A stretch of 64,000 bases of DNA from an uncultured bacterium. GTDB taxonomy: Bacteria > Methylomirabilota > Methylomirabilia > Methylomirabilales > 2-02-FULL-66-22. The position numbers were made by a program, and so were the translations under genes. Shown here in pieces: positions 31,147 through 48,531 of the stretch. Under the pieces are notes generated by a model. It made no database searches. It was not told where the DNA came from and saw only the letters and a list, made by a program, of their open reading frames with translations. The stretch is from assembly GCA_964576535.1 (NCBI GenBank), contig CAZNWB010000001.1:66082-130081 (forward strand), read 5' to 3'. Position 1 is the first letter of the stretch; every line of letters begins with the position of its first letter.

Positions 31147-32420
31147 TACCGTATGGCCACCACCGGATCCACCCCGGCCGCCTGGCGCGACGGGATGATG
31201 GTCGCCAGGAAGCTGATCACGAAGGCGGTGATCGTGATGGCCAGCACGTCCGGCCACAGGACGCGGGACGGCAGCTTGTCCAGCAGATAGACGTCTTGGG
31301 GGAAGGCCTTGAAGCCGAAGAGCCACTCCACCGCCGCCACGATGGGATCCAGGTTGTGGGCGATCGTGAGACCGGCCACGAGGCCCAGGACCGTCCCCGC
31401 CGCCCCGATGATCATCCCCTGCACGATGAAGACGGTCATGAGGCTTTTCCCGGTGGCCCCCATGGACTTCAGGACGGCGATCTCCTTTCGCTTCTGCATG
31501 ACCAGCATGATCAGCGTGCTGATGATTCCGAAGGCCGCCACCAGGACGATCATGGTCAGGATGACGAACATCACGGTCCGCTCCACGCGGAGTGCCGAGA
31601 AGAAGTTGCGGTTCATCTCCATCCACGTCCGGGTGAAGTACGGGAACTTGAGGGCGGCGCGAATGGCCTCGGCCACGGGCTGCGCGTGGTAGATCTCCCG
31701 CACCCGCACCTCGATCCCCGAGACGGCCGACCCCATCCGGAAGAGTTGCTGGGCCGTCGGGATGGCGATCATGGCCAGCTTGGAATCGAATTCCGCGAAC
31801 CCCACCTGGAAGATCCCGACCACGGTGAACCGGCGCGTCCGGGGCATCATGCCCAGAGGGGAGAGGTCTCCGCCCAGGGGCAGGAGCACGTCCACGGCGC
31901 TCCCGACGCTGACTCCCAGGGTGCTGGCCAGGTATGAGCCGAGGACGATCCCGTCCGGAGGAAAGACGGGGCGCGGGTTGGCGATGGCGGCGGTAAGGTC
32001 GGGGCTGGCGCTTTTCAGCGTCCTCTTGAAATCGGTCGTTTCCACGGCCGAGGCCAGGTCGATGCCACGGAGCACGGTGCCTGCGGTCCGACCCACGGCC
32101 GTGAGCAGCACCTCGCTGTAGGTGAAGGGGGAGGCAGCCGTCACACCCGGAACCTGGCGGACGGCCGCCAGGGTGGCGGCCGGCTCCTCGATCCCCCGCT
32201 CGCCGTAGCGCAGGACCCAGATGTGGGCGTTGGTGCCGAGGATCTTGTTGCGGAGGTCGAATTCGAACCCGCTCATCACCGCCATCACTACGATCAGGGC
32301 CATGACCCCGACAGCCACCCCGGCCGTGGAGATGAAGGTGATGACGGAGATGGATCGCCGCCGCCTGGCCTTGAGGTAGCGGAGGGCGATGAAGATCTCG
32401 TAGGGTGTGGACCCGGCCAT
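31140..32420 (-). CDS. lolC: Lipoprotein-releasing system permease (LolC/LolE family, FtsX-like)
   Basis: ..YEIFIALRYLKARRR.., a large periplasmic domain, and the C-terminal FtsX TM bundle ..VLKSMGAT. Confidence 0.88.
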   Translation of the reverse strand: MAGSTPYEIFIALRYLKARRRRSISVITFISTAGVAVGVMALIVVMAVMSGFEFDLRNKILGTNAHIWVLRYGERGIEEPAATLAAVRQVPGVTAASPFTYSEVLLTAVGRTAGTVLRGIDLASAVETTDFKRTLKSASPDLTAAIANPRPVFPPDGIVLGSYLASTLGVSVGSAVDVLLPLGGDLSPLGMMPRTRRFTVVGIFQVGFAEFDSKLAMIAIPTAQQLFRMGSAVSGIEVRVREIYHAQPVAEAIRAALKFPYFTRTWMEMNRNFFSALRVERTVMFVILTMIVLVAAFGIISTLIMLVMQKRKEIAVLKSMGATGKSLMTVFIVQGMIIGAAGTVLGLVAGLTIAHNLDPIVAAVEWLFGFKAFPQDVYLLDKLPSRVLWPDVLAITITAFVISFLATIIPSRQAAGVDPVVAIRYE

Positions 32421-32473: not shown

Positions 32474-32597
32474 GCCAATGCAAAACGGACAACGGACAAC
32501 TGACAACCGGCCATCTGCCGAACTTGACCGGTTGTCGGTTGTCAGTTTGACACTTGAAATTACCCCCGCAAGGGACCGGTTGTCGGTTGTCAGTTCG
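32474..32597. repeat. GTTGTC-family element (one left arm, two right-arm copies)
   Basis: GCCAATGCAAAACGGACAACGGACAACTGACAACCGG, then CCGGTTGTCGGTTGTCAGTT at 32529 and again at 32576. Confidence 0.8.
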
Positions 32598-32601
32598 TCA
32601 T

Positions 32602-32630
32602 GTGAAAATGCGAGGGCTAGACGCCCTCGC
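32602..32630 (-). terminator. Intrinsic terminator of lysS with the stop codon in the loop
   Basis: Minus strand: GCGAGGGC-GTCTA-GCCCTCGC followed by ATTTTCAC. Confidence 0.6.
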
Positions 32631-34107
32631 GGGCCTCGGGCCGGAGCAATGGGAACAGGATGACGTCCCGGATGGAGGGGGCGTCGGTGAGGAGCATGAC
32701 CAGGCGATCAATCCCGATCCCCTCGCCGGCCGTGGGCGGCAGCCCGTACTCCAACGCCCGCAGGTAGTCCTCGTCCATGGAGTGGGCCTCCTCGTCCCCG
32801 GCGGCCCGCGCCTTGGCCTGGGCCTCCAGCCGAACCCGCTGCTCCCGCGGATCGTTGAGCTCGGTGTAGGCGTTGGCCACCTCCAGCCCACCGGCATACA
32901 GCTCGAAGCGCTGGGCAAAGCGGGGATCGTCCGGCCTGGCCTTGGCGAGGGGGCTGAGCTCTACGGGGAAGTCGGTCACGAAGGTCGGCTGGATGAGTTG
33001 CGCTTCCACCCGGGCCTCGAAAAGCTCCACCAGAAGCTTGGCCCATCCCCAGGCCGGTTTCACCGCGATGCCGCTGGCCTCCGCGGCCGCGCGCAGGCGG
33101 TCCCCGTCCCCAGCCTCCTGGGGGCTCAACCCTCCCAACTTGACTAGCGCCTCTTCAACACTGAGCCGCGGCCAGGGCGGGGCAAAGGAAATCGGCTTCC
33201 CCTGGTACGTGATGGTCTCCCCGCCGCAGACGGCGCGCACCACCTGGGGCAGGAGCTGCTCCGTCAAGGCCATGAGATCCCGGTAGTCGGCGTAGGCCTG
33301 GTAGAACTCCAGCATGGTGAACTCGGGATTGTGCTGGGTGGACACCCCTTCGTTCCGGAAGTTCCGGTTGATCTCGTACACGCGCTCCAGTCCCCCGACC
33401 ACGCACCGCTTGAGGTGGAGTTCCGGCGCGACCCGCAGGTAGAGATCGAGGCCCAGGGCGTTGTGATGCGTCACGAAAGGTCGGGCGGCGGCGCCACCCG
33501 GGATCGGCTGCATCATGGGCGTCTCGACCTCGAGAAAGCCCCGGGCGTCGAAGAAGCGGCGGATCTCGGCGATGATCCGCGCCCGCCGCTGGAAGAGCTC
33601 CACCACGGGCGGATTGGCGATCAGGTCCACGTAGCGCTGGCGGTAGCGGACCTCCACGTCGGAGAGGCCGTGCCATTTGTCGGGGAGCGGGCGTAACGCC
33701 TTGGCCAGCAGCTCAAGCCGCTCGACATGCACCGTCAGCTCACCCGTCTTGGTCCGGAAGACACGCCCGCAGATGCCCAAGAAGTCACCGATGTCGATCC
33801 GGCGGAACAGGTGATATGCCGTCTCGCCCACGCTGTCCTGCCGGACGTAGATCTGAATCCTCCCTGTCCGGTCCTTGATGTGGGCGAAGGAGGCCTTGCC
33901 GTGGGTGCGCAGGGACAGGACCCGCCCGGCTACCGTGACGGGCTCGGCCCCCGCCAGGGCGGCGTCATCGGCGGCGGCGTAGCGGGTGAGGAGCTCGCCA
34001 CCCTGATGGGTGACGGGGAAGGTGCTGGGGTAGGGGTCGATGCCGTCGCGACTGAGGTCCTCCAGCTTTTTCAGGCGCTCCCGGATGAACGCACTCGGCT
34101 CTTCCAC
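32617..34107 (-). CDS. lysS: Lysine--tRNA ligase (class II)
   Basis: OB-fold N-terminal domain and class II motifs (..[10 protein letters not shown].., ..[17 protein letters not shown].., ..[11 protein letters not shown]..). GTG start after GGAGGA. Confidence 0.95.
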
Positions 34108-34134
34108 TCGTCCTCCGGATGATCGGGAGGCCAG

Positions 34135-34253
34135 CTCTCAGCCATCAGCCACGGAAAAGGCGAGAGCGGGAAATTCGGAAGCTGAAACCGATTGCCCTCG
34201 TTGCCCGCCTGCAAGCTGAAAGCTGAAAGCTGACCGCTGATCGCTGAACGCTG
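34135..34253. repeat. GCTGA-family element in the lysS 5' leader
   Basis: CTCTCAGCCATCAGCC at 34135 and six tandem NNGCTGA heptamers at 34212-34253 are inverse-oriented partners. Confidence 0.75.
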
Positions 34254-34273
34254 AGATTGCGTAACGTGCCGCG

Positions 34274-34302
34274 ATTATAGGGAGGGGTGGGAGGAGTGTC
34301 AA
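34274..34302 (-). promoter_or_regulatory. Perfect consensus sigma70 promoter TTGACA-N17-TATAAT
   Basis: Minus strand: TGTCAA at 34297-34302 and ATTATA at 34274-34279, with a spacer counted as 17 nt. About 165 nt upstream of the lysS start. Confidence 0.75.
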
Positions 34303-34320
34303 GCCAACGCCCCAACCCAA

Positions 34321-34452
34321 CGTGTTCGGTGGTTCGAGAGTTCGGTGGGTGGGTCGTTCGGCGCATCCCGATGAACCACCGGGACCCACGGCACCGCGGT
34401 GGATTCCCACCGCCGTGGCGTGGGTGCCCCGAACACTCGAACGATCGAACGC
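34321..34452. repeat. GTTCGG-family element with nested 56-nt core hairpin
   Basis: GTTCGGTGGTTCGAGAGTTCGG.. left, ..CGAACACTCGAACGATCGAACG right, core at 34379-34434. Confidence 0.85.
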
Positions 34453-34473
34453 CTCTGGCTGGCATTGGCCAGG

Positions 34474-34716
34474 TCAACCCTTGACCCTGAGCTGGGACTC
34501 GTTCTGGGCGATAAATTTCCTGATGTCGTCCGCCATGCCGAGGAGCTTCAGCCACTGCTCCTTGTAGAGGGTGACGGGAAACCGCCCCAGACCATAGACC
34601 GATACCGCGCCTTTCTCGCTCACCTTGATGCTCGTTGCCCGGGTCACCTTGGCCTTGAGCGCCTGGTTCTCGGCCCGCAGCCGCTCCAGCTCCGCCCGAA
34701 GATCGTCGTCCCCCAT
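34474..34716 (-). CDS. Small hypothetical protein (80 aa; N-terminal coiled-coil)
   Basis: ATG at 34716 is preceded by GGGGGGAGGTG. The composition is coding-like (..VSEKGAVSVYGLGRFPVTLYKEQWLKLL..). No family recognised. Confidence 0.6.
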   Translation of the reverse strand: MGDDDLRAELERLRAENQALKAKVTRATSIKVSEKGAVSVYGLGRFPVTLYKEQWLKLLGMADDIRKFIAQNESQLRVKG

Positions 34717-34942: not shown

Positions 34943-36050
34943 CTAGCTTGCCTTCTCGGGCGGCTTGAAGAGAACCGCCTCGATGAAACGGTCCAGGTCC
35001 CCGCCCAGGACCGCGGTGACGTTCCCCGTCTCCTCGCCCGTCCGATGATCTTTGACCAACTGGTACGGGGCCAGGACGTAGGACCGAATCTGGCTGCCCC
35101 AGGCGATGGGCGCCTTTACCCCCTGGAGCTTGGCCATCTCCTCGTCCTGCTGCCGCTTGTAGTGGTCGTAGAGCCGGGCCCGCAGGACCTTCATGGCCAT
35201 GGCCTTATTCTTGTGCTGCGAGCGCTCGTTCTGGCAGGTGGCCACGATCCCGGTGGGCAGGTGGGTGATGCGGACGGCGGAGTCGGTCACGTTGATGTGC
35301 TGCCCGCCGTGCCCCCCGGCCCGGAACGTATCGATCCTGAGGTCTTTGTCCTCGATCTTGATCTCGATGTCGTCGGAGATCTCGGGATACACGAAGACCG
35401 ACGCGAAGGAGGTATGCCGCCGCTTGCTGGCGTCGAAGGGGGAGATGCGCACCAGTCGGTGCACCCCGATCTCGGCGTGCAGGTGCCCGTAGGCATAGGG
35501 GCCTGTTACAGTCACGGTGGCATTCTTGATCCCCGCTTCTTCGCCCTCCAACAGGTCGATGACCTCGGTCGTGAACCCTTTCGACTCGACCCAGCGAAGG
35601 TACATTCGCAGGAGCATCTGCGCCCAGTCCTGGGACTCGGTCCCGCCGGCGCCGGGGTTGATGCTCAGGATGGCGTTCCCCTTGTCATATTCGCCCGAGA
35701 GGACCGTCTGCAACTCCAGGGCCCGGACCTGTCGCGTGAGCTCCTTGAGTCCATTGGAGACCTCTTGGAGCGTTTCGACGTCCTCCTGGTCCGCGGCCAG
35801 ATCCAGGAGCTCCCGGTGATCTCCCAGGTCTTTGACCAGGCCGGCATGCTGGTCCAGGGTCTGGCGAAGGTTCCTCGTCTCTTTCAGGACCTTCTGGGCT
35901 CTGTCCGGATCACTCCAGAACTCCGGTGCCCCCGTGGCCGCCTCGAGACTTGCCAGCCGAGCGGCCTTGCCGGGCAAGTCAAAGATACACCCGGAGCTGT
36001 TCGACCTTTCGCTGGAGCTCGTCAATCGTGCGTTGCAGATCAGGAATCAT
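34943..36050 (-). CDS. prfB: Peptide chain release factor 2, programmed +1 frameshift (36050..35982 joined to 35980..34943)
   Basis: ATG at 36050 gives MIPDLQRTIDELQRKVEQLRVYL, then the in-frame TGA in TAT CTT TGA C. The +1 frame continues DLPGKAARLASLE.. through SPF and GGQ (..AGGHGGQHINV..). Confidence 0.93.
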
Positions 36051-47503: not shown

Positions 47504-47647
47504 CTGTAGCTGTCAGCCGTCAGTTGTCAGCCCTAGCGTCCCACATGAATTCTGCGTTCGTCACTCCTTGGGGAATGAACCTAGCTGGCGGTTCCTGTGT
47601 CTCGGACCCACAAGCTGACGGCTGACCGCTGATGGCTGAGCGCTCAG
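47504..47647. repeat. GCTGA-family inverted heptamer arrays with a 75-nt spacer
   Basis: GTAGCTG TCAGCCG TCAGTTG TCAGCCC at 47506 versus AAGCTGA CGGCTGA CCGCTGA TGGCTGA GCGCTCA at 47611. The right end overlaps the birA stop. Confidence 0.75.
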
Positions 47648-48455: not shown

Positions 48456-48531
48456 GTAGCGCTCAGCCATCAGCATTCAGCCATCAGCGCCGATCAGCGA
48501 GCTGACCGCTGATTGCTGATCGCTGCCCCTC

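Follow-up and report, generated by a model that had tools for sequence, protein, structure and literature searches.

Intervening sequences (IVSs) of 23S rRNA, for instance in Coxiella burnetii, are excised by RNase III (PMC4990558), and the Correia elements of Neisseria are bound or cut by the same enzyme (PMC2649163). RNase III also cuts the 5′ untranslated region (5′ UTR) of Haemophilus influenzae hmw1A, where a heptamer repeat, (ATCTTTC)n, forms one arm of a hairpin (PMC12721329). Further tandem words have been described as paired hepta- and octanucleotide repeats in Geobacter metallireducens (PMC2700814) and as TAACTGA direct repeats in Beggiatoaceae (PMC4679880). Here, we report on a hairpin of tandem heptamers in the predicted leader of lysS, the gene for a class II lysyl-tRNA synthetase (LysRS), in a 64,000-nt stretch of DNA from an uncultured bacterium of the order Methylomirabilales (positions 66,082 to 130,081 of contig CAZNWB010000001.1; this whole stretch is referred to as the window, and its numbering is used unless stated otherwise). 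The genome, designated G000, comprises 3.72 Mb on 204 contigs with 65.3% GC. The hairpin belongs to a repeat family found throughout this genome, lies behind a conserved promoter and is present in some congeners and absent from others. It is probably a co-transcribed, dispensable passenger copy of that repeat behind an ancient promoter, rather than a dedicated regulator of lysS.

The lysS promoter

A promoter scan returned a 12/12 match to TTGACA-17-TATAAT at 34302–34274 on the minus strand, the sole promoter-like site between positions 32000 and 37000. This bears out the exact consensus that an earlier note, made from the sequence of this DNA, had pointed out. Perfect TTGACA-N16–18-TATAAT sites number four in the whole genome, with ~0.06 expected by arithmetic from base composition. 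The leaders of the other three sites (TTGACA-N16–17-TATAAT at C8:59914(+), C39:26059(−) and C176:1201(+) of G000) all appear short; two of these sites are followed by a Shine–Dalgarno (SD)-like sequence and a start codon within about 10–35 nt, and the third has no obvious SD.

For comparison, we used the lysS upstream regions of 21 genomes belonging to the same genus and of 11 that represent other families of the order; counts among the 19 congeners refer to those whose upstream sequence was usable. All 19 have a best match of 11–12/12, which is perfect (12/12) in 14 of them, with TATAAT and TTGAC invariant, and 8 of the 11 representatives of other families reach at least 10/12. At all sites, in congeners and other families alike, the start codon follows the –10 box at a distance of 21–50 nt, and in six close relatives this distance is exactly 44 nt despite their differing leader sequences. 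The 17-bp spacer is C-rich, and both the CCCTCCC adjoining the –10 box and a GC-rich discriminator, CGCCGCAC, are conserved among congeners; CCTCCCTATAAT has a single occurrence in the genome, at lysS. The SD, GGAGG, is kept in 18 of 19 relatives, G009 having GGAGA. The G016 contig includes only 203 nt ahead of the lysS start codon, and no promoter can be seen in them.

Since both its sequence and its position are maintained throughout the genus and in most of the order, we take the site to be a genuine, anciently conserved, near-consensus σ70-type promoter that belongs to lysS, and the same comparison indicates a short ancestral leader of about 37 nt. GC-rich discriminators are typical of stringently controlled promoters in Escherichia coli, and on this textbook ground the lysS promoter may be under stringent control.

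The heptamer array and its fold

Downstream of the promoter, six heptamers follow each other in phase (CTCAGCG, TTCAGCG, ATCAGCG, GTCAGCT, TTCAGCT and TTCAGCT), called by Tandem Repeats Finder (TRF) as 6.6 copies of period 7 at 34209–34254. Six in-phase TCAGC cores are beyond chance. Further along the leader lies a complementary arm, GGCUGAUGGCUGAGAGCUGGCC, so that both the array and its downstream partner, as described in the earlier note, are real. In the predicted fold, this arm pairs with the last three heptamers and the preceding G (34235–34214), yielding a stem of 21 bp with one mismatch. The first three heptamers, which the note had included in the pairing, are left without a partner and unpaired. 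The folding energy of the element is –56.3 kcal/mol (z = –3.0).

Assuming that the conserved A at 34267 is the transcription start, as deduced from its spacing to the –10 box, the leader would measure ~160 nt, as had been proposed, and the hairpin would span about +13 to +139, ending 12 nt before the SD. Since the array lies between promoter and SD and no other promoter-like site is present, it is almost certainly part of any transcript that extends to the lysS start; transcription of the array, previously called certain, is very probable. No intrinsic terminator or attenuator was recognised, as there is no U-tract behind the stem. An ATG in the 3′ arm opens a 24-codon frame, which we rejected as an upstream open reading frame (ORF) because no SD precedes it and it is located in the stem.

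Distribution of the hairpin among congeners

The TCAGC/GCTGA hairpin occupies the lysS leader in G000, G012 and G016 only, i.e. in 3 of the 19 congeners, the other 16 being without it. In the alignment, it appears as a clean indel of ~122–125 nt, with G000 and G012 filled and G001, G003, G031 and G017 empty. The carriers do not form a clade: in the LysRS tree, they fall into three different subclades of a well-supported clade of nine genomes. At 4-fold degenerate sites of lysS, G012 is 92–93% identical to the empty-site genomes G001 and G003, which have one empty allele in common, and only 65% identical to G000. The hairpin interior, in contrast, shows 84% identity between these two genomes, G000 and G012, and only about 55% between G000 and G016. 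It is single-copy (a BLAST search against its own genome gave the self-match only), and among 66 genomes of the order its sole match is in G012 (85%). On sequence grounds, this pattern of identities favours recent exchange or retained polymorphism over uniform constraint, with selection as a further possibility.

In G012, the element is flanked by a 6-bp repeat (GTAATC…GCAATC), and the empty site reads GCAGAT. The repeat is possibly a target duplication, or else a substrate for precise deletion.

A second kind of hairpin was found in G011 (locus L096). About 150 nt long (z = –4.7) and situated between TATAAT and the lysS start, at the position matching that in G000, it is unrelated to the TCAGC/GCTGA hairpin and built from a different word family, with CAATGCAAAA / AACCGAC-type units within a GC-rich outer stem. 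As the G011 hairpin is independent, the short lysS leader was hit at least twice.

A genome-wide class of tandem-word hairpins

TRF identified 1168 non-redundant arrays of period 7–9 in the genome. By crude gene calls, 841 of these lie outside genes, 731 of them in spacers between two called genes. Array density is 1.4–1.55 per kb in same-strand and convergent spacers vs. 0.77 per kb in divergent ones. The GCTGA family contributes 79 arrays, which make up 46 TCAGC/GCTGA hairpins with a median interior of 37 nt (50 nt or longer in 19 hairpins) and a modal arm of 4 units; the six-unit arm at lysS is the longest of all 46.

Most copies begin a few nucleotides past a stop codon and end a few nucleotides ahead of the next start codon. 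This also applies to two copies, at 47504 and 48456, for which a leader position had been considered: they fill operon spacers directly after stop codons, with no promoter. The lysS copy departs from the usual stop-to-start position in same-strand spacers in that a promoter stands between the upstream stop codon and the element; the 30 nt that separate it from the start codon are towards the upper limit of what is usual. Across the genome, an array between –10 box and start codon was found at 4 of the 87 genes with a promoter match of at least 10/12, and lysS alone has one in its leader among the 21 genes with a match of at least 11/12.

The arms follow a fixed polarity. TCAGC precedes GCTGA in 24 of 24 pairs (24:0) and GTTCG precedes CGAAC in 46 of 48 (46:1 plus one same-sense pair). 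We noticed that the reverse arm order is essentially absent although its stem would be equally good (for the order observed, see e.g. 48463–48525, 47504–47644 and 34324–34465). A pattern of three TCAGC units (TCAGC ×3) is present in 58 of 66 genomes of the order, whereas a reversed control hardly occurs. TCAGC ×3 was found in every sampled family but one (0 of 6 genomes); the family without it also has AT-rich lysS promoter regions.

To ask at which level the class might act, sense and antisense folds were compared for 122 same-strand hairpins. The sense RNA is the stabler one in 57 and the antisense in 65 (p = 0.55) and, because of this even split, the repeat class overall is without sign of RNA-level selection as far as modelled folds can tell.

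Relation to S23p/IVS-type cassettes

PF05635 is a four-helix bundle known as the intervening-sequence protein of 23S rRNA. G000 encodes six such genes, four of which are bracketed by inverted tandem-word arrays, and when the six are taken together with 29 loci from congeners, 26 of the 35 are bracketed on both sides. At three PF05635 loci, the arms are of the TCAGC…GCTGA type (L125, 1431–1852, in G010; L130, 1421–1861, in G006; L128, about 1390–1860, in G016; locus numbering). In these, the right array overlaps the end of the ORF, where AAGCTGAAAGCTGAYCGCTGA encodes the protein's C-terminus, KLKADR-stop. The lysS element shares the arms and the polarity of such cassettes and contains no ORF.

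The lysS-leader hairpin might be a gene-less, mobile cassette of the S23p/IVS type that lies outside rRNA, is trimmed by RNase III and can be exchanged between species. Under this explanation, the 5′ UTR of an essential and strongly transcribed gene would tolerate the element because RNase III trims it from the transcript, and exchange between species is suggested by the interior being more similar between G000 and G012 than their neutral sites. A search of the lysS interior for a cassette remnant, however, gave no significant similarity to S23p cassettes (best E = 0.08, on a 12-nt word), and no array-armed insertion was found in the 23S rRNA gene of the congener G015; the family relationship therefore comes down to architecture. 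The element also sits in an mRNA leader and not in 23S rRNA (no 23S gene is assembled in G000), and is not an IVS in the strict sense. We regard a cassette origin as doubtful. If true, it would make the lysS locus a natural, easily assayed insertion that removes itself from an mRNA at the RNA level.

Translational control of LysRS and other candidate functions

In the earlier note, the heptamer array, its partner arm and a CCUCC segment forming an anti-SD hairpin had been read as a dedicated cis-regulator of the translation or stability of the LysRS mRNA. The position would suit such a function, the element lying in the leader just 12 nt upstream of the SD, and pairing of CCUCC with the GGAGG of the SD is possible locally (ΔG –8.4 kcal/mol). 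This pairing is not the dominant fold, however. Once the modelled RNA extends at least 30 nt into the coding region, the prediction pairs the SD with neither CCUCC nor the array but with codons 6–9 (UUCAUCCGG; pairing probability about 1), and in folds without coding sequence the pairing probability of CCUCC is 0.2–0.7. Moreover, the alignment shows the T of CCUCC to be unique to G000, the corresponding sequence being CCGCC in G012 and G001 and TCGCC in G031. Predicted SD accessibility varies from 0.04 to 0.76 across relatives without any pattern; the G000 value is the lowest in the comparison with 18 relatives, its SD being almost fully paired (probability unpaired 0.01), which would speak for regulation. 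In these models, SD occlusion appears as a prediction for a single genome that is not conserved and is independent of the heptamer array.

Homology searches point the same way. Rfam, searched with the whole window at gathering thresholds, returned no match and hence no riboswitch, T-box or L-box, and at E-values up to 5 the region 34000–34520 gave chance-level matches only (E at least 0.5). More favourable to a regulator are the fold of the element, whose sense RNA is 10.9 kcal/mol stabler than the antisense, and its interior, which between G000 and G012 is more conserved than neutral sites. For the arms alone, the values are –36.4 (sense) vs. –23.3 kcal/mol (antisense), a gap that is due to G–U pairs. 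Against this stand the absence of the hairpin from most congeners and the habit of the TCAGC/GCTGA family, which mostly fills operon spacers. A dedicated regulator of LysRS made up of array and anti-SD hairpin is improbable, given that the hairpin is missing in 16 of the 19 congeners, CCUCC is confined to G000 and Rfam offers no match.

Copy-number tuning would be another way for the array to set lysS expression, with heptamer slippage altering the hairpin as in the phase-variable hmw1A 5′ UTR of H. influenzae, which provides the precedent (PMC12721329). Unit counts in left and right arms do differ between species (6/about 2.5 in G000, 4/3 in G012, at least 3/4 in G016), and the G000 arm is, as said, the longest of its family. 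But three metagenome contigs from G012-like strains carry the same 4/3 counts as G012, so that variation is seen only between species; in addition, six units are short for efficient slippage, and for an essential housekeeping gene the benefit of switching is not obvious. We consider this very improbable. That a repressor or nucleoid protein binds the tandem heptamers past the promoter, which would then work at the DNA level as an operator or roadblock, is scarcely credible: it would agree with the missing genome-wide preference for stable sense RNA, and a conserved binding protein could be the reason why the word family is kept across most of the order's families, but arrays lie downstream of only 4 of 87 strong promoter-like sites, most copies are inside operons past stop codons, and close relatives do without the element at lysS.

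Layout of the locus

The features of the lysS region are compiled in Table 1. Upstream of lysS lies prfB, encoding release factor 2 (RF2), and downstream a gene for a LolC/E-like permease; E. coli also has the prfB–lysS arrangement.

Table 1. Features of the lysS leader and its surroundings, in window coordinates.
Feature	Position	Strand	Basis
lysS, class II lysyl-tRNA synthetase, GTG start at 34107	32617..34107	–	Pfam tRNA-synt_2 (2e-91) and OB anticodon-binding domain
SD, GGAGG	34112..34116	–	read from sequence
CCTCC, possible anti-SD, overlapping the end of the 3′ arm at the base of the big stem	34126..34130	–	
3′ arm GGCTGATGGCTGAGAGCTGGCC, about 2.5–3 GCTGA units	34129..34150	–	sequence and fold
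Hairpin interior, ~63 nt, unique in the genome	34151..34213	–	
5′ arm, six in-phase NNTCAGC heptamers	34214..34255	–	sequence, TRF, fold
Predicted transcription start, conserved A, 7 nt past the –10 box	34267	–	deduced from spacing and the conserved CGCCGCAC motif
–10 hexamer TATAAT, followed by the GC-rich discriminator CGCGGCAC	34274..34279	–	promoter scan, congener alignment
–35 hexamer TTGACA of the lysS promoter	34297..34302	–	promoter scan
Separate GTTCG/CGAAC octamer hairpin, between the stop codon of the upstream 80-aa ORF and the promoter	~34324..34465	–	sequence, TRF

Arrays of the GTTCGG type are found at the site equivalent to that of the octamer hairpin in G003 and G012. The 80-aa ORF between prfB and lysS (34474–34716, minus strand, stop codon at 34474) matched no Pfam family above cut-off, the one sub-threshold match being to Herpes_BLRF2; its C-terminal half (…VYGLGRFPVTLYKEQWLKLL…) is kept at the equivalent site in several congeners. 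prfB shows the classical programmed +1 frameshift (35978–36050, minus strand): ORF0 comprises 23 codons, from the ATG at 36050 to CTT TGA C at 35984–35978, and the main PCRF/RF-1 frame (34943–36025) carries on after the frameshift site. Past the lysS stop codon, a 196-nt spacer contains more heptamer arrays at 32484–32595 (CAACCGA-type, then GGTTGTC / CGTTGTC-type). As these also form a hairpin, ahead of the gene for the LolC/E-like permease, lysS has repeat hairpins on both sides.

Discussion

We propose that lysS is transcribed from an ancient, near-perfect σ70-type promoter whose original leader would have been about 37 nt long, and that a ~122-nt copy of the TCAGC/GCTGA heptamer family landed in the leader of G000 and two congeners. 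The hairpin would since have been gained, lost or exchanged between close species. Where present, it would be co-transcribed with lysS and fold into a 21-bp stem around an interior unique to it. A constitutive effect is the most plausible one: a long double-stranded stem in a 5′ UTR may be cut by RNase III or alter mRNA stability, by analogy with 23S rRNA IVSs, Correia elements and the hmw1A hairpin, and could thereby change the level of lysS mRNA. At 21 bp, the stem is just about long enough to serve as an RNase III substrate, and the gene for the enzyme (rnc) is present in the genome. We see no sign that the element is a sensor of lysine or tRNA.

Several observations weigh against a mere passenger. 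With a leader array at just 4 of the 87 genes with strong promoters, the placement at lysS is unusual for the repeat class. The stability advantage of the sense over the antisense RNA puts the lysS element at about the 2nd percentile of the 122 hairpins, and other leader copies also lean towards sense (–6.8 kcal/mol in G016 and –16.5 kcal/mol in G011), that of G012 (–0.3) not doing so. These modelled energies give a weak hint that copies in leaders are tuned by their RNA fold. The 84% identity of the interior between G000 and G012, set against 65% at neutral sites, could mean selection on the element and not recent exchange. Finally, with the interior lacking homology to S23p cassettes, arm design is what a derivation from them has to go by. 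Balanced against the empty sites in close relatives, the scattered carriers and the membership of a large repeat family, these points leave a dispensable, co-transcribed repeat copy as the likely explanation.

Several lessons follow from the locus. An essential gene can take up one of this lineage's abundant tandem-word hairpins in its 5′ UTR and tolerate it. Filled and empty alleles of the lysS leader occur naturally in near-identical backgrounds and constitute a ready-made experiment on how a repeat affects an mRNA and on whether RNase III treats it like an IVS of rRNA. The near-consensus σ70-type promoter with its GC-rich discriminator, in turn, offers a usable promoter model for an uncultured lineage.

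Comparison with known systems

The closest parallels are found among elements that place a hairpin in a transcript. The lysS element shares with S23p-type IVSs its hairpin shape and its insertion in a highly transcribed RNA; PF05635 genes of the genus have matching inverted tandem-word arms, three of them with TCAGC/GCTGA, and IVS stems are substrates of RNase III, an enzyme that G000 encodes. In contrast to IVSs, it lies in an mRNA leader, has no ORF and carries an interior unlike those of the cassettes.

With hmw1A, the lysS leader shares a tandem heptamer array that is transcribed in the 5′ UTR and forms the left arm of a long hairpin. The hmw1A hairpin is processed by RNase III, whereas cleavage of the lysS stem is predicted by analogy. 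The two arrays also differ in build: that of hmw1A has 11 or more units, is phase-variable and pairs with a G-rich arm, whereas that of lysS has six units, pairs with a reverse-complement array and belongs to a genome-wide family, without copy-number variation among close strains as judged from the three G012-like contigs.

Correia elements, hairpin-forming miniature inverted-repeat transposable elements (MITEs) and repetitive extragenic palindromic (REP) elements resemble the lysS element as hairpin repeats that are scattered between genes, transcribed along with the adjoining genes and present at a given site in some strains but not in close relatives; RNase III binds or cuts them, and they influence how the adjacent gene is expressed. 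In Correia elements, the sequence is conserved over its full length and the target duplications are defined, whereas hairpins of the lysS type have only the arm word in common, each with a unique interior, and the 6-bp flanking repeat is no more than suggestive.

In Geobacter and Beggiatoaceae, as here, tandem words of 7–8 nt are abundant between genes, some of them ending in CTGA (MTYCTGA, TAACTGA). The Geobacter repeats are often paired on opposite strands, and those of Beggiatoaceae stand just upstream of start codons. Words and lineages differ from those of the lysS family, and the Beggiatoaceae arrays are direct, without an inverted partner. To these systems, the lysS locus adds an essential gene whose leader occurs naturally both with and without the insertion, behind a consensus promoter that is deeply conserved.

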